IMG/VR virus record: IMGVR_UViG_2734482545_000002
DNA: 25,502 bases
Strand: one strand, 5' to 3'
From: a virus
Lineage: Duplodnaviria; Heunggongvirae; Uroviricota; Caudoviricetes
Within the stretch, counting starts at the first letter, position 1. Each line of letters starts with the position of its first letter. The notes under the pieces were generated by a model. That model was not told the origin of the DNA. It was given only the letters and a program-made list of their open reading frames with translations, and ran no database searches. Made by a program: the position numbers and the translations under genes. Below, in pieces: positions 1 to 23,635 of this stretch.

Positions 1-28
1 AGGGACAGCTGATAGAAACAGAAGCCAC
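1..28 (-). CDS. insA: IS1 InsA, N-terminal fragment (GTG start at 28..26, continues off window)
   Basis: Minus-strand reading from 28: GTG GCT TCT GTT TCT ATC AGC TGT CCC = VASVSISCP, matching the InsA N-terminus as I recall it. Truncated by the window edge, not necessarily in the genome. Confidence 0.6.
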
Positions 29-83
29 TGGAGCACCTCAAAAACACCATCATACACTAAATCAGTAAGTTGGCAGCATCACC
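1..83 (-). mobile_element. IS1: IS1 insertion sequence, terminal 83 bp (left inverted-repeat end); rest of element lies beyond the window's left edge
   Basis: Reverse complement of 1-83 reads GGTGATGCTGCCAACTTACTGATTTAGTGTATGATGGTGTTTTTGAGGTGCTCCAGTGGCTTCTGTTTCTATCAGCTGTCCCT, which I recognise as the IS1 left end including the terminal inverted repeat (window 61-83) and the start of insA. Recognition is from memory. Confidence 0.85.
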
Positions 84-832
84 AGCCTTCTTGAGGCTAC
101 CACCTGTTTTCAGGTGTCATTCAGACGTGATTTGCCCCAGATTGGGAAAGCACGCTTTTTTCTCAGCTATCGTCCTCTTATTTTGCCGTTACATTTCTTT
201 TTGCATTCTAATGATTAATTTACAATAATAATATCGGTAATTATTGAGTAATAATAAATTAATTATTGCAAATGTAATTTAATTCCATCTTCGCGTTATA
301 TTCCAATCTTTAATCTCCGCATGGAACAAGTTGCATGCGTGACTATATTAAGACGACTTATAACCACCAAAACATTTGCTTTGCAAGCAAAAACAGTGAC
401 CATTGACTCTAAGAAAATTCCGATCTATTGTTAGGGTCATCAAAGTTACTTAACAGTATTCCGAAATGAAAATACAAAGCAAGCTAATTGTCTTATTAAA
501 CATTATTATTGCATTTATATTATTTGAGCTTTTAGCTCAAAAATTTGGTTTGAGTACATTATTTTAAAGCAAGATAAACAATATCGGGCACTCTAGTTTT
601 TATAATTAACAATTAAACGTCCATAAAATGTTATTTACTTTTCTTCGCTATTGTCATATCTTAATATAGTGGCTTACGCCACTCTACTTTCATCACATTT
701 TGTACGTTTATGTACTCGCCATGAAGCTCTTTCATGGCGATTTTTTATTCTTAATCCAAGAACATACTCCCTACCTATAGCAAAATCACTTTTTTAACAA
801 AAGAATAACGTATTTAGGTAATCATTACGAAT
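84..832. other. AT-rich non-lambda spacer/accessory segment between the IS1 end and tfa; no ORF of 60 aa or more on either strand
   Basis: Visibly AT-rich (roughly 30% G+C by eye, not computed) against the GC-rich structural genes. Does not match the sequence I recall downstream of lambda tfa. The supplied ORF track has no ORFs here. Confidence 0.6.
717..747 (+). terminator. Rho-independent terminator candidate, plus-strand orientation
   Basis: cgccatgaa (717-725) / ttcatggcg (731-739) form a 9-bp GC-containing stem with loop gctct, followed by a tttttt tract at 741-746. On the minus strand the hairpin is preceded, not followed, by the U tract, so the orientation is plus. Confidence 0.5.
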
Positions 833-1414
833 TTACCCTATAGGTGCTACTGGCCATTCAATATCCGGTGCAGTTGATGTATCAACACGGTTCAGCAACA
901 CCCGATACTTTTTCCAAGCTTCCAGCAACAAGGTTTCTTTCTCCGTTGCGATCTCCAGATCCACAGCATCCTGAAGCGGCGCTATATGCTCACTGGCTAC
1001 CTGCATCAGGCTGTTTTTTGTTTCTTCCGCCTCCCGGATCCGGAACAGTTTTTCTGCTTCCGTATCCTTCACCCAGGCTGTGCCGTTCCACTTCTGAAAC
1101 TCCCCTTCCGGGGATAACCAGGTGACATTTTCCGGTAATGAGCCGAGTTCAGAAATAAATAACGCGTCGCCGGAAGCCACGTCATAAACCGTTTTACCCC
1201 GATGATCTTCAACGAGATGCCACGATGACTCATCACTGTTGAAAACAGCCACGAAACCAGCCGGAATATCTGGCGGTGCAATATCGGTACTGTTTGCAGG
1301 CAGACCTGTATGAGGCGGAATATATGCGTCACCTTCACCAATAAATTCATTAGTTCCGGCCAGCAGGTTATAAATTTTTATGGTCCGTGCTTGTTCACTC
1401 ATTCTGAATGCCAT
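833..1414 (-). CDS. tfa: Tail fiber assembly protein (lambda Tfa homologue), 193 aa
   Basis: [27 protein letters not shown]... is near-identical to lambda Tfa as I recall it, except the last few C-terminal residues. ATG at 1414..1412 overlaps the stf stop (ATAATG arrangement as in lambda). Confidence 0.93.
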
Positions 1415-4400
1415 TATGCGAGCCTCACAATATAGTTAAATGCGATGTTTTTGACGGTGTTTTCCGCGTTACCAGCAGCGTTAACGGTGATGGTGTGTCC
1501 ATGTGAACCAATCGCAACAGAGTGCGTATGAGCACCAATACCGACAGTATGCGCGTGTGCACCCGCAGATGCTGCTGTGCCGGACAGTGAGTGTGTATGG
1601 TTTCCTTCTGAAGATGATTTACCTACCCATTGGGAGGTGCCACTGGTTAATGAGCCACTGATACCAACCTGATTAGTCCCGCTAACTTGAGTACTCCCTG
1701 CCGGAAACATTCCAGTAGGTTGACTCCCGCTATTCGTTCTGGGCCCAGTCTGACTATGTTGGTGGGCCCCAGCTGAACTTGTAGAGCCGCTCAGACTGTG
1801 CGTATGCGCCCCGGTGTTATTCGTGGATTTAGTGCCGTAATCAAACGACGATGTGGTTTTCGTCCCCAAATCCGTACTGGATGCGCTGGCGCTGTGGGTG
1901 TGCGATTTAATGCCATCCTGTTCCTGAGACAATACGGCACGACCACTGGCGGGCTTGCCCTTAATCGTCCAGCCACGCATATCAGGGATCACGCCTGACG
2001 GATAAGCGGCTGCAAGTTTCGGGTAAGCAGATTTGTCAAAAGTCTGCCCCTGCATCAGGGCATAACCAGACGGAACGGTATCTGATGGCCACGGGATTGG
2101 TGCACCGACTGGATAAAACTCTGCAGGAGGATGAGCCGAGGTGTAAAGCTGCGCCCACGGCGACCAGTTTGCGTCGGTCGTATCCCGTCGTGAACGAATA
2201 AATGCCGGAGCATGAGCACCGCTTGTACCACTCCAGCCGATGAGTAACTCACCTTCGCCAACGGCTGTCATCCCTTTCAGGTGAATGATATTTCCATACG
2301 CTGTTGGATATCCGTTGTTATACACCTCGTATAACTCAAGACCTGCTGCCCCCTGCGTATTGTCTGTCAGCGCGGCTACCCGACCTTTTGAAGCCAGATT
2401 AACTGATGATACTGCTGTTCCACCTGACGGTAGCGCCCCGATCTCTGATGCCGTTGGCTTATTTCTGGAGTTATAGTCCCTTCGCCAGCCAGGTGAATAA
2501 TCTGTTCCGTGATTAATATAGGTAAACTGGGCGTTGGTTGTTCCGCCACCGCTGGATGTGGTCGGAGTGGTAATGCGGATCGTCATCGCTGACTTTATCC
2601 CCATTACTTCAATGACAGCTCCGGCGAGATGAATATTACCGCAGCCAGTATCAGTAATGATTTTATTATTGCCATAAGACCAGGAACCCTTGCACATCCA
2701 GTATGGATGGTTAAATGCTCCCTGAGAATCCAGCCACTCGATAAACTGTGCAGTCGTCCAGTTTCCTGTTGTTGTGCTTACTGACCCACCGAAGGCACGG
2801 CAGGCACCAATATTTTTCGTAAAGGTGTCTTTGCCAGGGATATCCGCACCGTTCTGATCTTTCTGCAGACGTTTCTCAGCATTGTCATTGGCTGCTTTTA
2901 CTGCCTTTGGCGTTGCCGCCAGCGTTTCAGACGTGCTGTTGGTCGCGCTGCTTAGCTGGATTATCCCTTTCTGTGCTGTCGTTGCATCCTGTGCGGTGTA
3001 TTTCCCGTTAGCCAGGTCATACGCGGCCTTAACGGCTTTTGGTGTTGCCGCCAGTGACTCGGAAGTGCTGTTAGTCGCACTACTGAGCTGTACTATCCCC
3101 TTTTTCGTCGTGCTCGCATCCTCAAGCGCCACGGCGGATGCAATATCCTCTGCCCGTTTTGCCGCTGTCTCAGCGCGCGTTGCTGCAGATTCCGCCGTAC
3201 TTTTGCTCTGAGCTGCTGCCGTCGCACTACCAGCAGCCTCTGTCGCCTTCGTGGATGCCGTCGTGGCGCTGCCCTTCGCTGCTGACGCCTGTCTGGTCGC
3301 CTCATCTTTTGAAGCAGACGCCGATGATGCCGATGACGCCNNNNNNNNNNNNNNNNNNNNNNNNNNNNNNNNNNNNNNNNNNNNNNNNNNNNNNNNNNNN
3401 NNNNNNNNNNNNNNNNNNNNNNNNNNNNNNNNNNNNNNNNNNNNNNNNNNNNNNNNNNNNNNNNNNNNNNNNNNNNNNNNNNNNNNNNNNNNNNNNNNNN
3501 NNNNNNNNNNNNNNNNNNNNNNNNNNNNNNNNNNNNNNNNNNNNNNNNNNNNNNNNNNNNNNNNNNNNNNNNNNNNNNNNNNNNNNNNNNCTGTTTTTGA
3601 GCCTGCCGCAGCTGAGGCACTCTGTCCCGCTGCCGTTTCAGAAGACCTGGCGTTCGTCTCGGACGTTTTGGCCGCCTTCGCAGAATTTGCAGCCGCCGTC
3701 GCCGAGGAAGCTGCGCTACTGGCGCTTGATGATGCGTTCGTTTCTGATGATTTTGCCGCCTCTTTTGAAGCCGACGCATCCCGGGCTGAGGTGGCAGCTT
3801 CTGACGCTTTCGTGGTCGCGGTGGATGCAGAAGTGGCTGCTGATTGTTGTGACGCTGCCGCATTCGTTTCTAACGTTTTCGCCGCACCGGCACTGGTAGC
3901 CGCCGCGCTTTTTGAGGACTCTGCAGCGGCAGCACTTTTTGAGGCTTCAGTGGCCTTTGTTGATGCCGTTCCTGCGCTGGAAGACGCTGACTGAGCCGAC
4001 GAAGCGGCCTGTCCGGCTGACGTGCTGGCTGCACGTGCTGAATCTGCAGCATCAGTCGCATGGGTTGCCGCCTCACGGGCTGATGTGCTGGCATCGCTGG
4101 CTGATTTCTTCGCGGCTGCCGTGTTCTGTGCCACCGCGGACGCGTTACGCGCCACCTCTTCCACCATCAGCTCAAAACGGCGCAGTGCCTCCGGACGGGC
4201 ATCATCCTCCGTCATGGCACCGAGAAAATCATTCAGCGTACCGGGTCGGGAATCTTCATACACGGTGATGGTCCCGGCATGTGACGGCGGGAATCCTTCC
4301 ACCAACAGAATAACGCTGTACTGACCGTACTCAACGTCCATGCTGTAACGCCCGGCTTCATCCGGATTTTCTGAGGCCAGCGTGTTCACCACCACCGTGG

Positions 4401-4491
4401 TGCTGTTACGTTTTGCTTTCAGCTGGATTGTGCAGTTCTGTACCGGTTTTCCTGTGCCGTCTTTCAGTACACCTGAAATCTTTACTGCCAT
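1414..4491 (-). CDS. stf: Side tail fiber protein (lambda Stf family), about 1025 aa including a 250-nt N run; enlarged relative to lambda Stf
   Basis: N-terminus [26 protein letters not shown] and C-terminus ...[29 protein letters not shown] match lambda Stf. Ala/Ser/Thr-rich low-complexity stalk and His-box motifs ([21 protein letters not shown]) are present. Start taken at ATG 4491..4489 (MAVK) rather than the upstream GTG at 4497 used by the track. Confidence 0.9.
2885..3115 (-). repeat. Imperfect direct repeat of ~75 bp inside stf, encoding two copies of the ~25-aa motif GI(V/I)[11 protein letters not shown](S/T)[11 protein letters not shown]
   Basis: Two similar nucleotide blocks (around 2893-2970 and 3040-3110) are visible; the protein shows the motif twice about 45 residues apart. 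Consistent with the known phage tail-fibre repeat motif. Confidence 0.7.
3341..3590. other. Run of 250 N inside stf (assembly gap or masked sequence)
   Basis: Literal n characters. The stf reading frame is maintained across the run as given. Confidence 0.99.
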
Positions 4492-4500
4492 ATTCACCCC

Positions 4501-4529
4501 ACAAAAAAGCCCGCCTGAACCGGCGGGCT
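4501..4529 (-). terminator. Rho-independent terminator downstream of lom (minus strand)
   Basis: Minus-strand read: agcccgccg gttca ggcgggct hairpin followed by tttttt (complement of the A-run at 4503-4508). Same position as the terminator-like hairpin in lambda between lom and stf. Confidence 0.7.
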
Positions 4530-4556
4530 GTCATAACACTGTGTTACCTGGCTAAT

Positions 4557-5364
4557 CAGAATTTATAACCGACACCCACGATGAAACCGTCAGTGCGCCA
4601 GAGACGTGTTGCTGTGGCGACCGTCATCACTTCNNNNNNNNNNNNNNNNNNNNNNNNNNNNNNNNNNNNNNNNNNNNNNNNNNNNNNNNNNNNNNNNNNN
4701 NNNNNNNNNNNNNNNNNNNNNNNNNNNNNNNNNNNNNNNNNNNNNNNNNNNNNNNNNNNNNNNNNNNNNNNNNNNNNNNNNNNNNNNNNNNNNNNNNNNN
4801 NNNNNNNNNNNNNNNNNNNNNNGAGCCTTCATAAGCAATATCAATGGCCACGGATTCGGTCGGGTTAAACTGCACGCCAGCTCCCCACGCCAGAGACGTG
4901 TTGCTGTGGCGACCGTCATCACTTCCGGTCAGCACGTCGTGCGTTTTCCCCTTGTTGTCAGTTACGCGGAGATAATCCCCGGAGAAAGTCGACACACGGC
5001 TGTAAGCCACACCCGCCATCGCATACGCGCTGAACCATTCATTCACGCGCACAGACGGCCCCGCCATCACGCTGAACCAGCGGTTACGCACGGAATCTTC
5101 ATGCCAGCGGGTATCGCTGTAACGGGTCAGCTGGCGATTCTTGTCTCCTGCATAGCTGAATGACGTCACCAGCCCCAGCGTATCCGTAAACTCATAACGG
5201 TATTTCACGTTAATCCCGTTCAGATCATCACTGCCGGGAACGTTGGTCCGGGCATGAAGATACCCCGCGCTCAGCGTGGACTGATGTTCAGACGCCCATG
5301 CAGGCGCACCGGATACGGCCAGGCAAATGGCTGCGGACAAAATGGCTGCACAAACTTTACGCAT
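4557..5364 (-). CDS. lom: Outer-membrane protein Lom (Ail/Lom family beta-barrel), interrupted by a 189-nt N run
   Basis: N-terminus MRKVCAAILSAAICLAVSGAPAWASEHQSTLSAGYLHARTN... and C-terminal TDGFIVGVGYKF-stop (4592..4557) match lambda Lom. The span is ~187 nt longer than lambda lom, about the size of the N run. Confidence 0.9.
4634..4822. other. Run of 189 N inside lom, flanked by a duplicated ~38-bp block
   Basis: cgccagagacgtgttgctgtggcgaccgtcatcacttc occurs at 4596-4633 (immediately left of the N run) and again at 4887-4924. Confidence 0.95.
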
Positions 5365-5386
5365 AATTACCTCTCGCTTTTCTGCA

Positions 5387-5413
5387 ATAAAAAAGGCGTC
5401 ATTCCTGACGCCA
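5387..5413 (-). terminator. Rho-independent terminator downstream of J (minus strand), upstream of lom
   Basis: Minus-strand read: ggcgtcagg aat gacgcc hairpin followed by ttttttatt (complement of aataaaaaa at 5387-5395). Confidence 0.65.
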
Positions 5414-5434
5414 TTTATTGGGGTTATAAATATT

Positions 5435-8400
5435 TCAACGAATACTGATGCCGGAAGCCGCTTTTTTGGTCACAATCACCGTACAGTCGGTGATATTGCC
5501 TGCCCCCTGATTGCCTTTCTGGAAAATCTTAAACTCCAGAGTGACGCTACCACCACCACTAGGCATATCAATAACTGCACTGTAACTACCGGGAATGGCC
5601 CCTTTAGTTTCTCTGGATGCGATTAATACGCCGTTTTTGCGAACTTCAAAACCATAACCCGTGTATCGCGTGCCTCCTGGGTTATTTCCGCTCCCCGGAT
5701 CGTCATACGCTATACCGTTAAAAATAATGGGCGGAATAATAATCTGGCGGTCAAAGTTATGATCATCGCTTATGGTGACTGTAACCGTCCCGTTTGGTGT
5801 TTCCGTGTTACCCCACGTACCAGCCTGTTTCGGAAATGATTTGGATACAGCTTTAACGAAGTCACCTCTGACCTGAGTCGCCTCCAGCATGCCCTTAATC
5901 GTACAGTTTTCATTTACCGTGACATTGTTGAGCGTCCCGGCGTTCGCATTCACACTGCCACTGATATCCGCATTTTTAGCGGTCAGCTTTCCGTCCGGAG
6001 TCAGGGAAAATGCCGATGGATTTCCACCGCTGGTAATGGTGGGGGCCGTCAGGCGTTTCAGGAACACGTCGTTCATGAATATCTGATCGCCCTGACCAAC
6101 AAACATCGGTTTTGTGTTGCCATTCGCAGGATTAACCATCGCAATCCTGTCCGCCGCCAGCAGCACCTGACTCTGCATGCCGTCAGGGGTGTTCTCAATA
6201 CCGGCACCAATACCCGCGATATAAAGGCGTCCGTCCTGCATCTGCTGCAGCTTCACAGCCCACATGCTGTTCAGGTTATTATTTGTATCAACCTGAACCT
6301 TCTGTATCTGCTGAATTGCCGCACTCTGGTCTTCCAGTTTCTTATTGACGGTCTGCGTGATTTCATTGCTGACATCCGTAATGGACGTCCTGATTTCAGC
6401 CAGGTCAGGCGCAAGCTGACCGTTATCAATCTGCGTCCACAGCTCCTGAGCCAGATGGGTTTTCCCTATCTCGCCTTTGAAAAAATCCAGATAACCGGAT
6501 GCATCATCACTCGGCTGACCAACAGCCTCCACGAATGCCGATTTGCCAACGGTGTTCACACTGCGGATATAAAAGTAATAATCATGGCCCGGTTTGATAT
6601 TGATACTGGCGGCTATCCAGTACAGCGCCGTGCCAAGATAGCGTGCTGTGGTTTCAACCTGCCTGATATCCGCAATCCGCTTTTCCGAGAACCAGAACTC
6701 AAACTGTACCGTCGGATCATAAACCGCAAGATGCGGCGTGGCGGTTATCTGAAAATAGCCCGGCGTCAGCTCAATCCGCGACAGCGCTGCCGGTGCGGCA
6801 ATCCGGAACGATACCGACGCCGGATCGCCCTGCTGCCCCCACGCATTTACTGCCCGGACTGTCAGCCTGTAGTTCCCCAGCGCCAGTTGTGTGAAGCGGT
6901 AAGTGGTTTCCGTCGTCCGGGCCGTGCTGACCAGNNNNNNNNNNNNNNNNNNNNNNNNNNNNNNNNNNNNNNNNNNNNNNNNNNNNNNNNNNNNNNNNNN
7001 NNNNNNNNNNNNNNNNNNNNNNNNNNNNNNNNNNNNNNNNNNNNNNNNNNNNNNNNNNNNNNNNNNNNNNNNNNNNNNNNNNNNNNNNNNNNNNNNNNNN
7101 NNNNNNNNNNNNNNNNNNNNNNNNNNNNNNNNNNNNNNNNNNNNNNNNNNNNNNNNNNNNNNNNNNNNNNNNNNNNNNNNNNNNNNNNNNNNNNNNNNNN
7201 NNNNNNNNNNNNNNNNNNNNNNNNNNNNNNNNNNNNNNNNNNNNNNNNNNNNNNNNNNNNNNNNNACCGTCAGGAACACGGCTCACTTTTACCTTCACGC
7301 CGTCGGTGACGGACTGGACCTCCACGCTGACCGGATTCCCCTGCCCGTCAACCAGGCTTATCAGCGTGGTGCCGGAGGATGGCAGCGTGATTTCACGGTC
7401 GAGCGTCAGCGTCCGGGTCTGGCTGTTCACCGCCAGCACGCGCCCGCCGGTGCGGATACCGGCATAGTCATCATCGCAGATTTCAATGACATCGCCCGGT
7501 ACATGACGAAGCCCTTCAGCACCCACGCTGAAATCCACGGTCTGCGTCTCCAGCAGTTCCGTTTTAATCAGCCACAGCCCGGCGCGGTGTGCCTGCCCCC
7601 GGCTGGTACAGCCAAAGGCATCCATCTTCGTGACGTTACGACCGTAACGGACAATGGCCTGCGTATCCTCCACAAGCTCTGTCGCCGTCTCCCAGCCGTT
7701 ATCCGGGTCAATCCAGTTCACCTCAACGGCATTATGGCGGTCTTTCAGGGCGCTGAAACTGTAGCGGAACGGCGCGCCATCATCCGGCATCACCACATTA
7801 CTGCGGTTATAGGCCCACACCTTATCCGACTGTCGGTCCTGCACGAACGTCAGCGTCTGCCCGTTCCATACCGGCATACAGCGCATCGCCGAGCAGAAAT
7901 CACTGAGCACATCCCACGCCTTGCGCTGTGTGGTCAGCCAGGCATTACAGGTGATGCGCGGCTCCGTGCTGCCAAAGCCGTCCGGCACCGACTGGTCACA
8001 GTACTGGCCGATGACATACAGCGCCCATTTATCCACATCTGCCGCACCAAGACGTTTCCCCATGCCATAGCGCGGATGGGTCAGCATATCCCACAGACAC
8101 CAGGCCATGTTGTTGCTGTATGCCGGTTTTAACGTTCCGTCCCAGATACCGCTGTATTGCCGCGTCTGCGGATTATAGTTCGACGGCACCTGCAGAATGC
8201 GCCCGCGAAGATGATAATTACGGCTCACCTGCTGGCTGCCGAACTGCTCCGAATCCACCTGTACGCCGACCAGTGCCGTGTTCGGGTAGCACTGTTTCAC
8301 ATCGATGATTTCGGTGTATGACGACCAGAGCGTTTTGTTCTGCAGCTGGTCTGTGGTGCTGTCCGGCGTCATTCTGCGCATCCGGATATTAAACGGGCGC

Positions 8401-8921
8401 GGCGGCAGGTTATCCACCACCACCGAGGCCAGATACTGCGAGGTGGTTTTGCCCTTAATGGTGATGTCTTTTTCCGTCACCCAGCCACCGTTACGCTGTA
8501 TCTGAACCAGCAGGCGGACTTCCGACGGATTCCTGTCTCCCTTTGAGGTGGTTTCCACCAGTGCCTGTACACCGAAGGTAAAGCGCAGACGGTCGATGTT
8601 TGCCGACGTGATGGTCCGGGTGATCGGCGTGTCATATTTCACTTCCGTACCCAGCACCGTCTCGGAGCCGGAGGATTCAAACCCCTCCGGCGGTGACTGC
8701 TCCTGCTCACCTGCCCGGAACACCACCGTGACGCCGGAGATGTTGGTATTCCCCTCATTGTCCAGCACCGGCGTACTGTTCAGCAGCACGCTTTTTAATC
8801 CATCCACCGGACCTTCAACCGGCCCTTCACTGATGGCATCGATCACACTCAGCAGCTGCGTGGACTTCAGGTTGTCCTTCGCTTCGCGCGGGGTATGCCC
8901 CTTACTGCTGCCTTTACCCAT
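5435..8921 (-). CDS. J: Tail tip / host specificity protein J (central tail fiber), about 1130-1160 aa; split into two track ORFs by a 331-nt N run
   Basis: N-terminus [45 protein letters not shown] matches lambda J. Track ORFs 6771..8921 and 5435..7279 are the N- and C-terminal parts in different frames across the N run. The C-terminal ~150 aa diverges from lambda J. Confidence 0.9.
6935..7265. other. Run of 331 N inside J
   Basis: Literal n characters. The J frame changes by +1 across the run, so the stated gap length cannot be exact. Confidence 0.99.
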
Positions 8922-8981
8922 TCGTCATGCTCCATAAACGATAAAACCGCCCGGAGGCGATTTCACATAAAACATTTTGCA

Positions 8982-9653
8982 TCAGCGACCAATCACCACA
9001 ACCTGACCACCGTCCCCTTCGTCTGCCGTGCTGATCTCCTGAGATACCACACGTGACCCCACGCGCATTTCACCATACAGAACAGGCATAACATTGCCCT
9101 GGGCAACCATGTTATCCAGTGAGGAGAAATAGGTGTTCTGCTTACCGTTATCCGTTGTCTGTGTGCGGGGAGTTCTGGCTTTCGGTGCCAGCATCTGAGC
9201 CACACCGCCGAGCACCATACTGGCACCGAGAGAAAACAGAATGCCGGTCATACCACCGGCACCAATGGCAGCCCCCCATGCTGCAAGGGTGGCTCCGGCG
9301 GTAAAGAATGATCCGGCAATGGCGGCTGCTCCCAGGACAATCTGGAATACACCACCTGACTTGGCCCCGGCGACTCTGGGAACAATATGAATCACAGCGC
9401 CGTCAGGCAGAGCCTCATGTAACTGTGCCGTTAATCCGGACGTGCTAACATCCTGCCCGGCAATACGCACCTGATACCAGCCGTCGCTCAGCTTCTGACG
9501 AAACGCAGGGAGCTGTGTGGCCATCGCCCGGATGGCTTCGGCACCCGTTTTCACACGAAGGTCGATGCGGCGGCCAAATCGTTGCAAATCCCCGTAAAGG
9601 CAGATGCGTGCCATGCCCGGTGACGCCAGAGGGAGTGTGTGCGTCGCTGCCAT
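8982..9653 (-). CDS. I: Tail assembly protein I, 223 aa
   Basis: Same length as lambda gpI, with the Gly/Ala-rich hydrophobic C-terminal half. Overlaps K by ~100 nt as in lambda. Confidence 0.88.
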   Translation of the reverse strand: MAATHTLPLASPGMARICLYGDLQRFGRRIDLRVKTGAEAIRAMATQLPAFRQKLSDGWYQVRIAGQDVSTSGLTAQLHEALPDGAVIHIVPRVAGAKSGGVFQIVLGAAAIAGSFFTAGATLAAWGAAIGAGGMTGILFSLGASMVLGGVAQMLAPKARTPRTQTTDNGKQNTYFSSLDNMVAQGNVMPVLYGEMRVGSRVVSQEISTADEGDGGQVVVIGR

Positions 9654-10213
9654 TTGTCGGTATACCTCTCTCGTTTGCTCAGTTGTTCAGGAATATGGTG
9701 CAGCAGCTCGCCGTCACCACAGTAAATGGCGGCATGATTCGGCACCGATGAACCAAAACAGCACAGCAGCACATCGCCCGGCTGCGCCGCTGACAACGGC
9801 ACCTGATACAGCCCTGTGGCCTCCAGATTATCCAGATAGAGATTCTGACCGTGACGCCACCAGTCATCCTCACGATGAAAATCCGGCATCTCAATCCCCG
9901 CCAGATGGTAAGCATCCCGGAACAGCGTGTAACAGTCCGTCACCCCGTGCTCAAAGCGCCGCCCGGTAAGATGTGGCACACAGCGGAACTTGTGAATCGC
10001 CCCCCGGCAGACCAGCCACCACGGCAAATCACTCTGCACCTGCAGCCGCCGGTCGGCCTCACTCAGCCAGGGCAGACCACCGTCCGGCTCACCGGAGATA
10101 TTCACGCAGGGGAAATATCTTTCCCCCTCCGGCGTTCTTACCACGAAGCCGCACGACTCCGCTGGAGCACATCGCCGGGCGTGCGCCAGAATCGCTGATT
10201 CTGTCTCTGTCAT
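9551..10213 (-). CDS. K: Tail assembly protein K (NlpC/P60-type peptidase fold), 220 aa as called
   Basis: Sequence ...AHARRCAPAESCGFVV...HIPEQLSKRERYTDKWQRRTHSLWRHRAW... recognised as gpK family. ATG at 10213 directly follows the L stop; the true start could be internal. Confidence 0.85.
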   Translation of the reverse strand: MTETESAILAHARRCAPAESCGFVVRTPEGERYFPCVNISGEPDGGLPWLSEADRRLQVQSDLPWWLVCRGAIHKFRCVPHLTGRRFEHGVTDCYTLFRDAYHLAGIEMPDFHREDDWWRHGQNLYLDNLEATGLYQVPLSAAQPGDVLLCCFGSSVPNHAAIYCGDGELLHHIPEQLSKRERYTDKWQRRTHSLWRHRAWHASAFTGICNDLAAASTFV

Positions 10214-10218
10214 GGGAT

Positions 10219-10917
10219 TTACTGCGAAAGTTTGTTAATGGAAAGGAAGCCGCCAAAGTTGCCGACGTTATTGCGAAACTTACAGCCACTCAGGCATTTG
10301 CTGCATTTATCCTTCGTGATGTCGGACGTTGGCTGGTCATATTCATCCGCGACCGCCGGACCGTGATAACCGCACTCATCGCCGCGATAGGTCCAGGTGC
10401 AGGTGTTGGCCAGCATGATACGTCCCGGAAAAACAGCGCCATCTGTTTCCGTCGGCGTGGACAGTACAAAAGAGGCACTCACCGCGCTCAGTTCGCTGCA
10501 CTGCTCAATGCGCCAGCGGCTGATCACCTCCTGCTCCGGATCGGCGTCACTGTTTCCGTTGACGAAGTTCACCGCATCCAGAAAACGGGCGTAAACCTTA
10601 CGCCGGACCACCGTTCCGCCGACCAGACTCTGTAGATCTTCCGCCATCCCGGTGACCATACCGTACAGGTTAGAAACCATCAGCGTGGGGCGCGTACTGG
10701 TGCCTTTGCCATTCAGTTCAAAACCACTCCCCTGAATGGGATACGGCTGATACTGTCGCCCCTGCCAGGTGACCGGCTCACCTTTTTCGTTCTGCTCATT
10801 ACAGAAAAAATAACGTTCTCCACCGACCTCTGTCAGATCGATTTCCCAGAGCACCACGCTGGCCGACTGCTCCGCACGGGTGCATTCATTCAGTGTTTCC
10901 TGCCGGATATCCTGCAT
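10219..10917 (-). CDS. L: Minor tail protein L, 232 aa
   Basis: Length and sequence (MQDIRQETLNECTRAEQSASVVLWEIDLTEVGGERYFFCNEQNEKGEPVTWQG...) match lambda gpL. Start overlaps the M stop. Confidence 0.92.
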   Translation of the reverse strand: MQDIRQETLNECTRAEQSASVVLWEIDLTEVGGERYFFCNEQNEKGEPVTWQGRQYQPYPIQGSGFELNGKGTSTRPTLMVSNLYGMVTGMAEDLQSLVGGTVVRRKVYARFLDAVNFVNGNSDADPEQEVISRWRIEQCSELSAVSASFVLSTPTETDGAVFPGRIMLANTCTWTYRGDECGYHGPAVADEYDQPTSDITKDKCSKCLSGCKFRNNVGNFGGFLSINKLSQ

Positions 10918-11246
10918 CAGTTCACCACCTGTTCAAACTCTGCGCTGAACTCAACACGCAGCATACTGACCCGCGACGACCATTTTGCGCAGGTCACCTT
11001 TATCTGCCGCCACTCATAAGGCGGCGTCCACAGAAAGGCTTTCCAGCCCCCGTGCTCTTCCAGAAACGACTCCAGTACCATGGCCTCCTCACGGGGGACA
11101 GAAAGCGTCACGCTGTACGTTTTCAGGTTGGCATTCAGCCCGGCAGGCGCTCGCTGGGAATAGCCATCACCAAAGCGCACCTTTCTTACAGAAGGGGCCG
11201 AAGCCACATCCATACCGGGTTTCACTTTCCAGCGGAAGGTTTTCAT
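10917..11246 (-). CDS. M: Minor tail protein M, 109 aa
   Basis: MKTFRWKVKPGMDVASAPSVRKVRFGDGYSQRAPAGLNANLKTYSVTLSVPREEA... matches lambda gpM. Overlaps the H stop by 4 nt. Confidence 0.92.
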   Translation of the reverse strand: MKTFRWKVKPGMDVASAPSVRKVRFGDGYSQRAPAGLNANLKTYSVTLSVPREEAMVLESFLEEHGGWKAFLWTPPYEWRQIKVTCAKWSSRVSMLRVEFSAEFEQVVN

Positions 11247-13804
11247 CGTCCACCTCCGGAGAACAGGCCACCATCACGCATCTGTGTCTGAATTTCATCA
11301 CGGGCACCCTTGCGGGCCATGTCATACACGGCCTTCATCATCTGTGGACCTGGCAGACCATTCGTACCGTCGTTCTGAATCACCACGTGATTGTTCTGAT
11401 TAAAATTAATGCCTTCAGCCCGCCGCATCTGCGCCGGACTTCCGGCACCGCCCACATAACCACCTTCCGCATAGCCGCGCATCAGCCGGTAGAGATTCCC
11501 CACGCCAATCCGGCTGGTTGCCTCCTTCGTGAAGACAAATTCACCACGGTGAACAATCCCCGCTGGCTCATATTTGCCGCCGGTTCCCGTAAATCCCCCG
11601 GTTGCAAAATGGAATTTCACCGCAGCGGCCTGAATGGCTGTACCACCTGACGCGGATGCGCCGCCACCAACAGCCCCGCCAATGGCGCTGCCGATACTCC
11701 CGACAATCCCCACCATTGCCTGCTTAAGCAGAATTTCTGTCATCATGGACAGCACGGAGCGGGTGAAGCTGCGCCAGTTCTGTTCACTGCCGGTCAGCAT
11801 CGCCGCCATATTCTGTGCAATACCATCAAAGGTCTGCGTGGCTGCACTTTTAACCTGTGACATACTGTCCGTGGCGCTCTCTTCCCACTCACTCCAGCCG
11901 GACTTCAGGCCTGCCATCCAGCTCCCGCGAAGCTGGTCTTCAGCCGCCCAGGTCTTTTTCTGCTCTGACATGACGTTATTCAGCGCCAGAGGATTATCGC
12001 CATACTGTTCCTTCAGGCGCTGTTCCGTGGCTTCCCGCGCTGCCTGCCGGTCAGTCAGCCCCCGGTTTTTCGCATCAATGGCTGCCCGTTTTGCCCGTTG
12101 CTGCTGTGCGAATTTATCCGCCTGCTGCGCCAGCGCATTCAGGTGCTCCTGATACGTAACCTTGTCACCAAGTGCAGCCAGCTGGCGTTTGTACTCCAGC
12201 GTCTCGTCTTTATGCGCCAGCAGGGATTTCTCCTGTGCGGACAGCTGGCGACGTTGTGCCGCCTCCTCCAGTACCGCGAACTGACTTTCTGCCTTCCACA
12301 AATCCCGGCGCTGCTGGCTGATTTTCTCATTCGCTCCGGCATGCTTCTCCAGCGTCCGGAGTTCTGCCTGAAGCGTCAGCAGGGCCGCATGAGCACTGTC
12401 TTCCTGACGATCGCCCGCATACACCTTCACGCCGGACTGTTTCGGCTTTTTCAGCGTCGCTTCATAATCCTTTTTCGCCGCCGCCATCAGCGTGTTGTAA
12501 TCTGCCTGCAGGATTTTTCCGTCTTTCAGTGCCTTGTTCAGTTCTTCCTGACGGGCGGTATATTTCTCCAGCGGCGTCTGCAGCCGTTCGTAAGCCTTCT
12601 GCGCCTCTTCGGTATATTTCAGCCGTGACGCTTCGGTATCGCTCTGCTGCTGCGCATTTTTGTCCTGTTGACGCTGTTGATCTACCCTCTTTTGGGCTGC
12701 ATCCCGCTCCAGGCGTTTTTTTTCACGATCATCCCAGTAACGCGCCCGTGCTTCATCGTTAACGAAATAATCATCCTTGCGCAGATTCCAGATGTCGTCT
12801 GCTTTCTTAAACGCAGCCTCTGCCTTAATCAGCATCTCCTGCGCGGTATCAGGACGACCAATATCCAGCACCGCATCCCACATGGATTTGAATGCACGTG
12901 CAGTCCTGTCTGCCCAGGTCTCCAGCGTGCCCATGTTCTCTTTCAGGCGGCGGGTCTGGTCATCAAACCCTTTCGTTGCGGCCTCGTTCGCCGCCTGCAA
13001 TGCCCCGGCTTCATCGCCGGAACGCTGCAACTGAGCAACATACGCAATCTGCTCCGCCGTCACGTTATGGAACTGGCGTGCCATCGCCGTCAGCCCCGAC
13101 GTCGGGTCTGTGGTCAGCTTCCCGAAGGCTTCAGCGACCTTGTCCACCTCCACGCCGGATGCATAGGAGAAACGCGCCACACTCTGGCTGATGGACGCAA
13201 TCTGAGCCTCACCGCTTACCCCCGCCTTAACCAGTGCGCTGAGTGACTCGCTGGTCTGGTTAAACGTCAGCCCTGCCGCCTGCCCGGCTCTGGACAGGAC
13301 CAGCATACGATCTGCCGTCAGTCCCGCCTGATTACCGGAAAGGACCAGCGTTTTGTTGAAATCGGACAGGGTTGAGTTGCCCTGATACCAGGCATACGCC
13401 AGCGCACCGGTCGCCACCGCCAGCGAGGTGGCCCCCACCATCGGCAGGGTGATCGCGCCGGCAAGCCCCCTGAACATGGGGATCATCCCGCCGAAGGAGT
13501 CCTTAACCTGACCACCCTGTTGCAGCAGGATCAGCCAGGGATTCTGCCCCCCTGCAAGCTGCGTGGCCACGTCGGTGAACTGTGCAGGCAGCATACGCAT
13601 GGCGGCTTTATACTGCCCGACGGAAATCCCCGCTTTCTGTGCAGCCAGCGCCTGTCGGCTCAGCGACTGTTCAACGACTGCCGCTGTTTTTTTCGCATCA
13701 CTTTCCGTACCGGAAAAATGACGCCTGACTCTGGCCATCTGCTCGTCAAATCTGGCCGCATCCAGACTCAAATCAACGACCAGATCGCCTACCGGTTCAG
13801 CCAT
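11243..13804 (-). CDS. H: Tail tape measure protein H, 853 aa
   Basis: Same length as lambda gpH, with the same N-terminus (MAEPVGDLVVDLSLDAARFDEQMARVRRHF...) and Gly-rich C-terminal region. Confidence 0.93.
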   Translation of the reverse strand: MAEPVGDLVVDLSLDAARFDEQMARVRRHFSGTESDAKKTAAVVEQSLSRQALAAQKAGISVGQYKAAMRMLPAQFTDVATQLAGGQNPWLILLQQGGQVKDSFGGMIPMFRGLAGAITLPMVGATSLAVATGALAYAWYQGNSTLSDFNKTLVLSGNQAGLTADRMLVLSRAGQAAGLTFNQTSESLSALVKAGVSGEAQIASISQSVARFSYASGVEVDKVAEAFGKLTTDPTSGLTAMARQFHNVTAEQIAYVAQLQRSGDEAGALQAANEAATKGFDDQTRRLKENMGTLETWADRTARAFKSMWDAVLDIGRPDTAQEMLIKAEAAFKKADDIWNLRKDDYFVNDEARARYWDDREKKRLERDAAQKRVDQQRQQDKNAQQQSDTEASRLKYTEEAQKAYERLQTPLEKYTARQEELNKALKDGKILQADYNTLMAAAKKDYEATLKKPKQSGVKVYAGDRQEDSAHAALLTLQAELRTLEKHAGANEKISQQRRDLWKAESQFAVLEEAAQRRQLSAQEKSLLAHKDETLEYKRQLAALGDKVTYQEHLNALAQQADKFAQQQRAKRAAIDAKNRGLTDRQAAREATEQRLKEQYGDNPLALNNVMSEQKKTWAAEDQLRGSWMAGLKSGWSEWEESATDSMSQVKSAATQTFDGIAQNMAAMLTGSEQNWRSFTRSVLSMMTEILLKQAMVGIVGSIGSAIGGAVGGGASASGGTAIQAAAVKFHFATGGFTGTGGKYEPAGIVHRGEFVFTKEATSRIGVGNLYRLMRGYAEGGYVGGAGSPAQMRRAEGINFNQNNHVVIQNDGTNGLPGPQMMKAVYDMARKGARDEIQTQMRDGGLFSGGGR

Positions 13805-14635
13805 ACCGGACTCCTCCTGCGATCCCTTCTGATACTGTCATCAGCATTACGTCATCCTCCGTCATGTCCGCCACATCCGGGGAAGCGGGGATAACTTCAT
13901 TCCCGTCCGGGCCAAAGCGGACACCTCCGGCAAGCCCTGCCGCTTTCTGCATCAGCACATCATCTTCAGGCTCTTCGTCAGCCTCGCGCCGGTTCAGCAG
14001 ACTGAAATCCAGCGGATGCATCTCCGGATCGCTGAAAAACAGGCTGAGCACGGTGTACGTCAGCCCGGAAAAGTGCATATCCAGCAGAACATCATGAAAA
14101 TAATGGGTACTGTAAAAGCGGTGCCAGTCGGCATACTCCGTGGATGACATCCCGGCAAGCATGGCGCGCCAGTCGGGTCGCCCCATCTCACGCGCCAGTT
14201 TCAGGGCAAAACTCAGCTCACCGTCGAACACTTTCCCGCAGAAACAGGCTCTGCAGGCCCGGCGTCCTCTGCCTGTTCAGGAGCATCATTCACCACAAAC
14301 TCATACATACCGGACAGCCGGTACACCACGTTTTCAGCATGAGAAATTGCCTCTGTGGGCCAGGTGGTAAGCACTTCCTGCTCAATCTGTTTAACGGCTT
14401 CATTCATGGACGGCATCTGCGTCTTCTTCGGATGGTTATGCCACAGGGACATCGCAACCACAAAAGCGCCGGTTCTGATGGCGTCTTCCACAGTAAACTT
14501 CCGGTTGCTGTCTGACTCCGCCTGTTCTGCCTGCCGTTTCATCAGGTCGAGATGCTCAATACGCTGCAGGGCTGACAGTTCAGAAAGCGTGACGGTCACA
14601 CCGTTATGTTCAAATGATTCGGTTTTCAGGAACAT
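13797..14635 (-). CDS. G-T: Tail assembly chaperone G-T fusion, made by programmed -1 ribosomal frameshift from G (14213..14635) into the T frame (13797..14231)
   Basis: G ORF ends ...SAGKCSTVS-stop. The -1 frame continues VFDGELSFALKLAREMGRP... (track ORF 13797..14231). The slippery heptamer GGGAAAG sits at the junction. Confidence 0.85.
14213..14635 (-). CDS. G: Tail assembly chaperone G, 140 aa
   Basis: MFLKTESFEHNGVTVTLSELSALQRIEHLDLMKRQAEQAESDSNRKFTVEDAIRTGAFVV... matches lambda gpG. ATG at 14635..14633. Confidence 0.9.
   Translation of the reverse strand: MFLKTESFEHNGVTVTLSELSALQRIEHLDLMKRQAEQAESDSNRKFTVEDAIRTGAFVVAMSLWHNHPKKTQMPSMNEAVKQIEQEVLTTWPTEAISHAENVVYRLSGMYEFVVNDAPEQAEDAGPAEPVSAGKCSTVS
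14231..14237 (-). promoter_or_regulatory. G-T programmed -1 frameshift slippery site (GGGAAAG on minus strand)
   Basis: Plus strand 14231-14237 is ctttccc, reverse complement GGGAAAG, located 5-6 codons before the G stop exactly as in lambda. Confidence 0.85.
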
Positions 14636-14650
14636 CGCTGACTCTCCGGA

Positions 14651-15391
14651 TTAACTGGCGGTGACGTTGATTTCTGCAACCGCAGCAAACTCACCATTAC
14701 CAGATACGACCGGAATGTTGACCTTGCCTGCAGCAACACCTTTCACGGTGATGGTCATACCACTGACCGACACGGTGGCTTTTGTTTTATCCGCAGACAC
14801 CGCACGGAAGCTCTTGTCGGTTGCGCCATCCGGCTGGAATGCCACGGTCAGCGTGGTGCTCTGCCCTTTCACTACGGAAGCACTGGCGGGTGTCACCGTC
14901 ATGCCGGTCGTCGCCGTCACCGTGCTGCGATCTTCTGCCATCGACGGACGTCCCACATTGGTGACCTTCACCGTGCGGGTAATCACCTCCTTCGCCGTCA
15001 CCGCCTTACCGATACTGCTGACCCAGCCACGGAACACATCGACCGTGCCGTTCGGGAAGCGGATTTTATAGGCACGGGTATCACCTTCATTAAACCACGC
15101 CAGCAGCGCCTGCTGCCCCTGCTCTCCGGGCATCCACGCCAGCGTGAAGCTGGTATCTCCGGCAGATTTCTGCCCCTGCCCGGTCGCAGTCCAGTCTGCA
15201 TCTTCATCATCGAGATAGCTGTCGTCATAGGACTCAGCGGTCAGTTCGCCGGGCGTCAGGTCTTTAACTTTTGCCAGACGCGACCAGTCAACGTCTGAAA
15301 GCGGGTTCGCATAAGGGTCACCGCTCCCCTTATAAACCCACAGGGTGGTCCCGGCACCTTTCACCGGCATTGTAGGATTTGGTACAGGCAT
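14651..15391 (-). CDS. V: Major tail tube protein V (with C-terminal Ig-like domain), 246 aa
   Basis: [44 protein letters not shown]... matches lambda gpV. Start chosen at ATG 15391..15389, preceded by a GAGGA Shine-Dalgarno, rather than the track's upstream ATG at 15421. Confidence 0.92.
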
Positions 15392-15398
15392 AGCGTCC

Positions 15399-15794
15399 TC
15401 ACATTTCATAGATAATGACATAAGTCAGATCGGCTGAACTCCACAGGCCCGCATCATCGTCGCGCCGGTAGTCATAGCCGCTGGCCACCATACTGGTGAT
15501 CAAATCTGACAGTGCCGGGATATCGCTCATCACAGGATAAATCCGGGACTCCATCCACGAATCCAGCTCTGAATCCGGCACCTGAGCAGGCAGGAAAACT
15601 TCAATATGCAGCTCCGCCTGCCAGGTATCGCTGTCCAGCTCTTCGCCCGTGTATTCAGCGCCGGTGAGATAAACGGCAATTGCCGGAAAATCTTCCTCAT
15701 CAAAAACAGCGGGGCGACCATCAAAAAGCGTCGCCCCGGTGTCATGCTTCTCCAGTGCATCCAGTACGGCTGCACGGAGTTCAGTATGTTTCAT
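15399..15794 (-). CDS. U: Tail terminator protein U, 131 aa
   Basis: [54 protein letters not shown]... matches lambda gpU. Confidence 0.92.
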
Positions 15795-16369
15795 CGCTTT
15801 ATTACCATTCTCAGTTGATGCTGCAGCGCATAGCCCAGCTCTTTCGGAAGACGTTCACGCCGTATCCGTTCAATATTCTGTTTAAACGCCGTGGTCAGCG
15901 GCACCGCCATCGGGATTTTCACCACATCAATGGGGTAACGGTTTTTCCCGGCCACACGCTGCATAACATGCCACCGGCCGTTTTTCAGTTGCTGAATAAA
16001 CGCGCCGGGAATACGACGGTTACCCACCACAAGCACGCTGCCGCCACCTTTCAGGGATGAACGCTGCCCCTTTTTATGACGCCTGCGGCGGGACAGGACA
16101 ACCCGCGCATTACCCAGCTTGATTACGGGCAAATCCCCCCGGTTAACTTTGATTCTGGCCTGCGGATTTTTGACCGTGGCCCTTTTCAGCCTGGCCCTTT
16201 CCTTTACCAGTTTCCGGCGTACCTTTGTCTCACGGGCAACCTGTGACGCAGACTGCGATATCGCGGATGAAGCAACGCGGTTAATGGCCATTGCGGCGGC
16301 ACCGGGCACCGCCGTTTTGCTGATACGGCTGAGGTTTTCAACGGCCTGCTCAAGACCTTTTATGGCCAT
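15791..16369 (-). CDS. Z: Tail completion protein Z, 192 aa
   Basis: MAIKGLEQAVENLSRISKTAVPGAAAMAINRVASSAISQSASQVARETKVRRKLV... matches lambda gpZ. Overlaps the U start by 4 nt. Confidence 0.92.
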   Translation of the reverse strand: MAIKGLEQAVENLSRISKTAVPGAAAMAINRVASSAISQSASQVARETKVRRKLVKERARLKRATVKNPQARIKVNRGDLPVIKLGNARVVLSRRRRHKKGQRSSLKGGGSVLVVGNRRIPGAFIQQLKNGRWHVMQRVAGKNRYPIDVVKIPMAVPLTTAFKQNIERIRRERLPKELGYALQHQLRMVIKR

Positions 16370-16380
16370 ACATCCCCCTT

Positions 16381-16734
16381 TCAGCGGCGACGGTTAACGG
16401 CAGGCGGTACGCCCCGTCCAAGCCAGAGATGACAACTTCCGCCATCATCCGGCGAAACCCGATCTACCCAGAAATTTTCCTCACCGATGGTCAGCGTGTC
16501 TCCACGCCGCAGCTGCCGCACCTCATCAGTCCGGACAAACAGGGACGGGCTGGAGCCTTCAACGCGCACGCCCTGTCCGGCATAGCTGATATTTTCAGGG
16601 TCATCAAAAACACCACGTATCACCGCACCTGACTGCTCACCGGATGTCATGGTGGCTGACGTTCCCATGTACCCGCGTATCGTTTCATCGGCGCGGGCAA
16701 TGGCAGCATCGAACAGGTTATCGAAATCAGCCAC
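16381..16734 (-). CDS. FII: Head-tail connector/joining protein FII, 117 aa
   Basis: MADFDNLFDAAIARADETIRGYMGTSATMTSGEQSGAVIRGVFDDPENISYAGQGVRVEGSSPSLFVRTDEVRQLRRGDTL... matches lambda gpFII. Confidence 0.92.
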   Translation of the reverse strand: MADFDNLFDAAIARADETIRGYMGTSATMTSGEQSGAVIRGVFDDPENISYAGQGVRVEGSSPSLFVRTDEVRQLRRGDTLTIGEENFWVDRVSPDDGGSCHLWLGRGVPPAVNRRR

Positions 16735-16745
16735 AGCGCCTCCCG

Positions 16746-17144
16746 TTATTGCATTCTGGCCAGGCCGCGCTCTGTCATTTCGGCTGCCACACCGGCAGAG
16801 ACACGAAACGCCGTTCCCGGCAGCACAAATGCCACAGGTTTATCCCGCGTGGCGTGAAGTGCATCAGTATGCAGCGTCACCAGTGCCACGACCGTGACCA
16901 GTTCAGCCGTATCCTGAATCACGGTATCCGGCTGCGCTGATACCACCTCATTTTCATGCCCGGTCAGCACATTTTCCCGGCTGAGAGGGGTGTCCTGACC
17001 GGCAGTTTCATCCGTGTCATCAAGCTCTTCTTCCAGCTCTGCCACACGAAGCGCCAGTTCTTCTTTCGTTCCCGTCAAACTGACATCGCGGTTCAATTGC
17101 TCACCCAGCTCCTGAAGACGGGCAATCAGTTCATCTTTCGTCAT
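16746..17144 (-). CDS. FI: DNA packaging accessory protein FI, 132 aa
   Basis: MTKDELIARLQELGEQLNRDVSLTGTKEELALRVAELEEELDDTDETAGQD... matches lambda gpFI. Start taken at the internal ATG 17144..17142, preceded by GGAGG; the track's 145-aa ORF starts 13 codons upstream. Confidence 0.9.
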   Translation of the reverse strand: MTKDELIARLQELGEQLNRDVSLTGTKEELALRVAELEEELDDTDETAGQDTPLSRENVLTGHENEVVSAQPDTVIQDTAELVTVVALVTLHTDALHATRDKPVAFVLPGTAFRVSAGVAAEMTERGLARMQ

Positions 17145-17185
17145 GAACTCCTCCACAGAGAGAAAATGGCCCCGAAGGGCCATGA

Positions 17186-18211
17186 TTACGCCAGTTGAAC
17201 GGACACGAACTCATCAGGATCAGCCAGCAGCATCAGCGGTGCTGACTGAATCATGGTGAACTCACGCGCCGGATCGCCGGTGGTCACCCAGTTTTTCGGG
17301 TAACGGGCAGAAGCGTTAATGCCTTCGCGCTGTGCGTCCGCATCCTGAATGCAGCCATAGGTGCGCAGACCGCGAGCCTGAGTGTTCCCCAGCACCATCG
17401 TGTTGTCCGGCAGGAAGTTCTTTTTGACGCCGTTTTCCACGTACTGTCCGGAATACACGACGATGGCCACATCGCCATACATTCCCTTATAGGACACCGC
17501 TTTGCCCAGGTCTTTTACCGCTGTCTCCAGCTCGGAATGAGAGCCGCGACGGGTATCCAGCTTCTCCTTGACGGCTTTGAAGGAACGGAACAGCGCCCAG
17601 CCTTTCGGGTCAAACACGATGATATTCACCACACCGCTGGCGTTCAGCGCGTAGGCTTCGATATCGTCGGTCGGGTCATACGTGGACTTGTCACGCTTGC
17701 TCCACTCCGTGACGCCGGACTGTGTGATGTTGTTCGCCGCACTGCGGCCCATATCCACCTCAACCGGATCGAAGGCTTCACCGGTCATGGTGTATTTGCC
17801 CTTGAGCACGGCAGAAACTGCCTGCATCTCTTCGACCTGAGCAATGGCCAGCTCTTCGTCACGCATGTTCTGCATGATGATGCGACGGCGGCGGTAAGCC
17901 GGGTCCGCCAGATTCTGCGGATCTTCATCCGGCAGGCGACGCAGGGTCATCTGCGGATTCACCTCATGCTTGGGTTTGACATATCCCGGCGTAAATTCAG
18001 AGGTGGAGCCGCCACGGGAACGGATAACCTCACCGGAAACAATCGGCGAAACGTACAGCGCCATGTTTACCAGTCCCGGAATTTGTGAGAGATAGACTTT
18101 CTCCGTAGTGAAGGGATAGCTCTCACGGAAAAAGAGACGCAGAAACAGCGGATCAAACTTAAATTTCTGCTCATTTGCCGCCAGCAGCTGGGCGGTTGTG
18201 TACATCGACAT
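17186..18211 (-). CDS. E: Major capsid protein E, 341 aa
   Basis: MSMYTTAQLLAANEQKFKFDPLFLRLFFRESYPFTTEKVYLSQIPGLVNMALYVSPIVSGEVIRSRGG... is near-identical to lambda gpE. Start at ATG 18211..18209; the track ORF extends 9 codons further. Confidence 0.95.
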   Translation of the reverse strand: MSMYTTAQLLAANEQKFKFDPLFLRLFFRESYPFTTEKVYLSQIPGLVNMALYVSPIVSGEVIRSRGGSTSEFTPGYVKPKHEVNPQMTLRRLPDEDPQNLADPAYRRRRIIMQNMRDEELAIAQVEEMQAVSAVLKGKYTMTGEAFDPVEVDMGRSAANNITQSGVTEWSKRDKSTYDPTDDIEAYALNASGVVNIIVFDPKGWALFRSFKAVKEKLDTRRGSHSELETAVKDLGKAVSYKGMYGDVAIVVYSGQYVENGVKKNFLPDNTMVLGNTQARGLRTYGCIQDADAQREGINASARYPKNWVTTGDPAREFTMIQSAPLMLLADPDEFVSVQLA

Positions 18212-18266
18212 AAAAAAATCCCGTAAAAAAAGCCACACAGGCGGCCTTTAGTGATGAAGGGTAAAG

Positions 18267-18599
18267 TTAAACGATGCTGATTGCCGTTCCGGCAAACACG
18301 GTCCGTTTTTTCGTCTCGTCGCTGGCAGCCTCCGGCCAGAGCACATCCTCATAACGGAACGTGCCGGACTTGTAGAACGTCAGTGTGGTGCTGGTCTGGT
18401 CAGCAGCAACCGCAAGAATGCCAACGGCAGCACCGTCGGTGGTGCCATCCCACGCAACCAGCTTACGGGTGGAGGTGTCCAGCATCAGCGGGGTCATTGC
18501 AGGCGCTTTCGCACTCAATCCGCCGGGCGCGGTTGCGGTATGAGCCGGGTCACTATTGCCCAGCGGCTGGTAATGGGTAAAGGTTTCTTTGCTCGTCAT
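18267..18599 (-). CDS. D: Head decoration protein D, 110 aa
   Basis: [68 protein letters not shown]... matches lambda gpD. Confidence 0.95.
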
Positions 18600-18608
18600 A
18601 AACATCCC

Positions 18609-19004
18609 TTACACTGGTGTGTTCAGCAAATCGTTAACGGCATCAGATGCCGGGTTACCTGCAGCCAGCGGTGCCGGTGCCCCCTGCATCAGACGATCCA
18701 GCGCAGTGTCACTGCGCGTCTGTGCACTCTGTGGTGCTGCGGCCAGAATACGGCGGGCCGTTTCCACGGTCATACCGGGGGTTTCGGCCAGCACGCGTGC
18801 CTGTTCTTCGCGTCCGTGAGCCTCCTCACAGTTGAGGATCCCCATAATGCGACTGTTTTCTGCCGCAACCGCTGCGGTGATCTGCGCGTTCACGTCCGGC
18901 TGCGCCGCGCTGGCGTTCTCGCCCTCCGTCGCTTGCACCACGCCAGTAACGTCAGCCTGCGAAGCAGTGGCTGAAACAGTTGTTGATTGAGTCTCTTTGG
19001 TCAT
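18609..19004 (-). CDS. Nu3: Scaffolding protein Nu3, 131 aa, nested in-frame in the 3' third of C
   Basis: Internal ATG at 19004..19002 preceded by AGGAGG gives MTKETQSTTVSATASQADVTGVV...LLNTPV, co-terminal with C. This nested arrangement is the known lambda C/Nu3 organisation. Confidence 0.8.
   Translation of the reverse strand: MTKETQSTTVSATASQADVTGVVQATEGENASAAQPDVNAQITAAVAAENSRIMGILNCEEAHGREEQARVLAETPGMTVETARRILAAAPQSAQTRSDTALDRLMQGAPAPLAAGNPASDAVNDLLNTPV

Positions 19005-19928: not shown

Positions 19929-23609
<3,681 letters not shown>

Positions 23610-23635
<26 letters not shown>

Follow-up and report, generated by a model that had tools for sequence, protein, structure and literature searches.

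The J gene of this lambda-like prophage raises the question of whether the end of the central tail fibre, which selects the host receptor, shares the origin of the head and tail genes that precede it. The window, i.e. the whole stretch of 25,502 nt that was analysed, corresponds to the left arm of such a prophage and is read on the minus strand. A sequence-only reading had proposed that the C-terminal region of J diverges from that of lambda while the rest of the head and tail is near-identical, and that the phage probably uses a different receptor. BLASTN comparison of the reverse complement of the window with lambda (NC_001416) aligned window 10083-24332 with lambda 13-14263 at 97.4% identity and window 7266-10082 with lambda 14344-17160 at 95.5%; beyond these blocks, downstream, identity to lambda becomes patchy. 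The near-identity of the other head and tail genes is thus borne out at 95-97% DNA identity over the matched blocks.

Gene J occupies the position expected of a lambda-type J in the tail gene row (H-M-L-K-I-J-lom-stf-tfa), which is collinear with lambda 13-17160 at 95-97%, and 60 nt separate the end of gene I from its start, the same spacing as that of lambda. From its start at 8921 to its stop codon at 5437-5435, J spans 3487 nt, including a run of 331 N, while intact relatives have 3498 nt (1165 aa). Its 3' part is carried by a minus-strand ORF (5435..7279) whose C-terminus is the peptide that the sequence-only reading had singled out. Residues 1-552 are 97% identical to lambda J, and likewise to the J protein of phage 434. 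Six Pfam families match J, all above cut-off: FNIII-A_GpJ, Phage-tail_3, Ig_J, Ig_J_second, Phage_Tail_Tip and Ig_GpJ_C. The features on which the following analysis relies are:

8921..5435, minus strand: gene J, tail tip attachment or central tail fibre protein, defined from ORFs and their translations, Pfam and relatives.
6935..7265, no strand: run of 331 N within J, where lambda, 434, E. coli MB56, PhiR42_1 and S. sonnei CP023645.1 have 342 nt.
6095..6455, minus strand: second mosaic block, which covers the alpha-helical shaft together with the upper central fibre and has 28 extra residues, defined by DNA and protein alignments.
5916..6094, minus strand: lower portion of the central straight fibre, conserved among the J genes of lambda, 434 and the window, defined by DNA windows.
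5438..5915, minus strand: block encoding a receptor-binding domain of the 434 class, with OmpC as predicted receptor, defined by alignments, PF12421 and phage records.
5395..5412, minus strand: hairpin resembling an intrinsic terminator, GGCGTCA-GGAA-TGACGCC followed by TTTTTTATT, 23 nt past the J stop codon.

Global alignment of the last 150 residues of J with lambda J 988-1132 gave 55 identities out of 156 positions (35%) with five indel sites (+2, +6, +1, +2 and -6 residues), a low value that agrees with the divergence first noticed in the sequence. The same 150 residues align with phage 434 J without a gap and are identical at 143 positions (95%). By comparison, the first 150 residues that follow the N run are close to both phages, with 143/150 identities to lambda and 144/150 to 434. 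When DNA identity to lambda was followed by windows of 60 nt, it was 90-95% at 6094-5915, fell to 65% at 5914-5855 and ranged from 32 to 65% over 5914-5435 as a whole. The break therefore lies at ca. 5915, within about 15 nt of the boundary of 5900 that had been given for it. It occurs at the identical point in 434 J, both by DNA windows and in the same columns of the protein alignment. Downstream of it, from 5915 to 5435, the DNA is 87-100% identical to 434 and PhiR42_1; over the receptor domain, identity to 434 is 95.7%, and the 3' J segment of the hybrid lambda h434 imm21 is 95.5% identical to the window. The annotated terminator of phage 434 also lies at a position equivalent to that of the hairpin at 5395..5412. 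The tip falls outside the LamB-binding class, with 35% identity to lambda J ca. 985-1132 and 35.3% to lambda records in tblastn.

The domain itself had been correctly recognised from the sequence. The C-terminus of J matches PF12421 (Tip attachment protein J, C-terminal receptor binding domain) with 90.7 bits for a cut-off of 26.2, the Ig_GpJ_C match spans ca. 5441-5848, and over the last 199 residues an end-to-end alignment was obtained with the solved structure of the receptor-binding domain of lambda gpJ (8xck/8xcj, E 9e-47; also 8iyk). The best match by sequence among PDB entries was the A8 gpJ 713 (9wca/9wcb, E 1.6e-55), for which no paper describing the structures was found.

Among phage records, a 466-nt segment covering this region is carried by 74 at 90-97% DNA identity, including phage 434, lambda h434 imm21, long-tailed Stx phages, mEp460 and ev243. 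Searching with the domain sequence by tblastn likewise returned 74 phage records of at least 90% amino acid identity, the best being phage Evi (99.3%). The other 169 phage records were below 60%, and at most 45% among the records listed, with 35% for lambda, 39% for phage 21, 41% for phi330 and 45% for Fels-1. Since these two groups are well separated, the tip of the window is assigned by its sequence to a discrete 434 (h434) class.

Upstream of the tip, the proposal that J is lambda-like holds for most of the protein, such as residues 1-552, and fails for the block at 6095-6455, where DNA identity to lambda and to 434 is only 23-67%. The same block is 95-98% identical to PhiR42_1 and was also found in the J genes of an E. 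coli MB56 prophage and of the S. sonnei prophage. It is followed by the conserved fibre segment (5916-6094), with DNA identities of 90-97% to lambda, 85-97% to 434 and 80-97% to PhiR42_1. J is therefore a three-part mosaic, and not lambda J with a new tip. Engineered gpJ chimeras have been joined at lambda aa 964, which falls inside the stretch equivalent to 5916-6094 (PMC11338833), and this stretch is likely the joint at which receptor domains are exchanged by homologous recombination. The receptor module of the window would have been gained in this way, as part of ordinary lambdoid mosaicism. The longer shaft, with its 28 extra residues, may affect how a signal travels from tip to hub.

In the same part of the protein, a peptide corresponding to lambda J 902-933 has been reported as the trigger of the prophage defence nuclease HepS (PMC13043305). 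The aligned segment of the window J lies at ca. 6045-6140, an estimate taken from the protein alignment. It retains the QIFMNDVF core around lambda F924, so that HepS might also sense this J.

Phage 434 has OmpC as its receptor, and giving lambda the 434 tail-fibre gene switches its binding from LamB to OmpC (PMC3509688, PMC11101478). Comparison of the lambda h434 imm21 hybrid with its parents at informative sites indicates lambda sequence up to 17619 and 434 sequence from 17637. The h434 host-range allele thus consists of J from codon ca. 705-711 to its end together with downstream DNA, and within this part of J the differences between 434 and lambda are almost confined to the last ca. 150 residues. 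Because of its 95% amino acid identity to 434 J, the tip of the window is probably specific for OmpC, and the earlier suggestion that the receptor differs from that of lambda finds support in this homology. For the closest isolated phages (the PhiR series and mEp332), a literature search for receptor data returned only a paper on another subject, in which no receptors were assigned to them.

In lambda, gpJ ends in an Ig-like domain that is trimeric and located at the far end of the central fibre, four bottom loops enter the LamB trimer, and the opening is relayed up the fibre until the tail tip opens (PMC11101478). By analogy with these structures, three copies of the Ig-like domain would occupy the same place on the central fibre of this phage, and their bottom loops would engage a trimeric outer-membrane porin, leading to opening of the tail tip. 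For a 434-class tip this porin would be OmpC rather than LamB. Overall, 5435-5915 very probably encodes a 434-class J receptor domain that recognises OmpC and that was joined to lambda-like head and tail genes by homologous recombination.

This tip is by no means rare. The 466-nt segment was found in 2113 of 5426 complete E. coli genomes (about 40%), mostly at 90-99% identity, and J-like DNA in 4650 of the 5426, with a median of three places per genome. A group of temperate phages known as isolates matches the whole window at 96-97% identity. The plaque-forming phage PhiR42_1 has a J of 3498 nt with the same whole-gene mosaic and 95-98% DNA identity over 4823-6934. Window 420-480 had no exact match in a collection of species-representative genomes. 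The gpI protein of the window is encoded identically in several assemblies. These include CP023645.1 (GCA_002442535.1), which corresponds to Shigella sonnei CFSAN030807 (PMC11594029) and in which the locus is 99.7-100% identical to window 1-19574. Its J has 1165 intact codons and agrees with the window at 1050 of the 1051 readable residues, the sole difference being N55S. The allele thus occurs in intact form in a finished genome.

A second complete assembly with the same prophage, CP022459.1, has single-base indels in the J region, and neither a J nor a tape-measure gene is called there. These indels reflect either decay of the prophage in some strains or homopolymer errors of the assembly.

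The copy found in the window is less easily read. As written, the N run puts the readable parts of J on its two sides into different frames, since it is 11 nt shorter (331 nt) than the 342 nt of five relatives, and the resulting 3487 nt are not a multiple of 3. Two possibilities can be considered: either the length of the run is only an estimate for a gap, or J has really lost 11 nt and is frameshifted. In all, three N runs occur in the tail-fibre region, at 3341-3590 (stf), 4634-4822 (lom) and 6935-7265 (J). Compared with the homologous stretches of relatives, their lengths deviate by -6 nt, about +209 nt and -11 nt, respectively. The runs may be scaffold gaps of estimated size, and scaffold joins are favoured by an exact 38-nt repeat beside the lom run, as would be found at contig ends.

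In gene K (9551-10213, minus strand), 81 nt that are present in lambda (14264-14343), in 434, in PhiR42_1 and in the near-identical S. sonnei copy are deleted in frame at 10082/10083. The protein thereby loses 27 residues (EAYFRMSPEDWLQAEMQGEIVALVHSHP) that contain the HSHP metal-binding motif of the JAB/MPN domain as well as the annotated start codon of lambda K, and its Prok-JAB score in Pfam drops from 52.6 to 20.3 bits for a cut-off of 25. The tail-tip assembly protein K, as judged from these losses, may be non-functional here.

In lom (about 4556-5364, minus strand), the 38-nt exact direct repeat occurs at 4596-4633 and 4888-4925 and abuts the N run. Read along the gene, lom is normal as far as 4823; the N run comes next, and beyond it the repeat leads into the lom 3' end. 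S. sonnei CP023645.1, which has no called lom gene, contains a single copy of the repeat, fused directly to the 3' end. The window may thus merge two lom alleles. A tandem duplication of 292 nt in lom was considered and rejected, the second expected repeat segment matching at 17 of 65 positions only.

These defects could mean that J is a relic, with a frameshift inside the N run, a prophage unable to build tails and a domain left without current receptor function. Such a reading would accommodate the J span and its short N run, the K deletion, the disruption or duplication of lom around the second N run and the IS1 that abuts the prophage end. It nevertheless appears rather unlikely when set against the possible scaffold origin of the N runs, the intact 1165-aa J of the near-identical copy in the complete S. 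sonnei genome, and the readable part of J, which is free of stop codons throughout and evidently conserved. For this particular prophage copy, the ability to make tails, or to express the domain in a working tail, is uncertain, given the unsettled frame of J across the N run and the deletion in K.

A further point concerns the residues that distinguish the tip from that of 434. OmpC is polymorphic. Seven substitutions occur in the last 150 residues, which are, with the window residue first and numbered on the 1165-aa J, S1032A, Q1036K, A1037V, N1047D, I1136V, Q1138H and G1143R. They align with lambda 1004, 1008, 1009, 1017, 1099, an insertion after 1099, and 1104. In lambda J, whether OmpF use is gained depends on changes at S1011, S1012, S1049, T1053 and N1107 (PMC8890733), phage 21 acquires OmpC as an additional receptor through one J mutation (PMC11336670), and two natural OmpC-directed gpJ tips, A8 and 1A2, accept different OmpC variants (PMC11338833). 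These porin-switch mutations and the selectivity of natural tips imply that fine specificity could differ from that of 434. The domain might then be 434-like with a shifted specificity, directed to another porin (OmpF, LamB) or to certain OmpC variants, for instance those of Shigella or of particular E. coli lineages.

Three of the seven differences do fall within the stretch corresponding to lambda 1099-1104, and another three within 1004-1009, close to the receptor-switch residues 1107 and 1011/1012. One mutation is enough to alter porin use in phage 21, and the A8 and 1A2 tips differ in the OmpC variants that they accept. However, the differences from 434 are mostly conservative or lie at sites that vary within the class, the two tips are free of indels relative to each other, and the tip of the plaque-forming phage Evi differs from that of the window at 1 of 145 residues only. 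A shifted specificity in place of that of 434 is accordingly seen as quite improbable, and a retuning, by these substitutions, of the OmpC variants or of the porin accepted as unlikely. Should retuning have taken place, the 434 class would represent a natural allelic series that tracks OmpC polymorphism, here in an S. sonnei-type background. Finally, the idea that the lambda-like/434-like junction is an assembly chimera of two prophages in one genome, to which the three N runs of the window and the median of three J-homologous places in E. coli genomes could lend some colour, is hardly credible and was rejected, since the junction at ca. 5915 lies in gap-free sequence inside the uninterrupted stretch 4823-6934 and the identical arrangement recurs in complete genomes and in isolated phages.

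Downstream of J and lom, the side tail fibre gene stf (1414-4497, minus strand) forms one open frame of 1027 codons, unlike the frameshifted stf of laboratory lambda. The tfa gene (833-1414, minus strand) encodes an assembly chaperone of 193 aa and its DNA is 93% identical to lambda tfa. Besides J, the side fibres probably play a part in adsorption. The window starts inside the end of an IS1 (approximately the first 190 nt), and the DNA between it and the tail fibre assembly gene is AT-rich and devoid of ORFs. Window 1-832 matches 280 E. coli genomes at 99.5% identity. In strain 104 of E. coli, the prophage end adjoins a gene for an AraC-family regulator, IS remnants and ybhB-bioA, which is the region of the lambda attachment site.

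The exchange of J tips among lambdoid phages, with 434 and OmpC on one side and lambda and LamB on the other, has been textbook knowledge since the h434 hybrids, and natural J tips are already in use to retarget lambda particles. The 434-class module, its receptor and its exchange are therefore long known and very common, and the present locus carries little weight as a discovery. Its practical value is one of annotation: the central fibre can be described as 434-class with a predicted specificity for OmpC, and the entry should carry a warning that this copy may be defective.

When compared with known J systems, that of phage 434 (OL657226.1 15505-18918) is the closest in its tip, with a receptor domain 95% identical, the same break from lambda and the same terminator position. 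It differs by the seven substitutions and by lacking the shaft and upper fibre block of the window with its 28 extra residues. Lambda J (NP_040600; 8xck/8xcj/8iyk), which binds LamB, shares the gene position, the series of domains, residues 1-552 at 97% and PF12421 with the window, but its receptor domain is 35% identical with five indel sites, and a different receptor is expected. The same mosaic over the whole gene, with a length of 3498 nt, occurs in PhiR42_1 (PV340562), Evi (LR597642), mEp332, Stx phage 2851, the cdtI phage and the S. sonnei CFSAN030807 prophage, in which J is uninterrupted and shows point differences only from the window.

Other OmpC-directed tips of lambda type belong to separate classes. 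In the A8 gpJ chimera (9wca/9wcb), the J tip of a natural E. coli prophage was placed on lambda at aa 964 and delivered DNA via OmpC (Brodel et al. 2024, PMC11338833). Its receptor domain is ca. 41% identical to that of the window (60/147), which makes it a distinct OmpC-targeting class, although the preceding fibre segment is 87% identical. The J of phi330, an EHEC siphophage, is also of lambda type with OmpC use established by experiment, and its tip, ca. 41% identical to that of the window, again represents a separate class. The lambda-type J of Gifsy-1 from Salmonella, with a C-terminal region reported to be 18% identical to that of lambda, forms a further class, for which OmpC use is likewise experimental and which also binds OmpX and BtuB.
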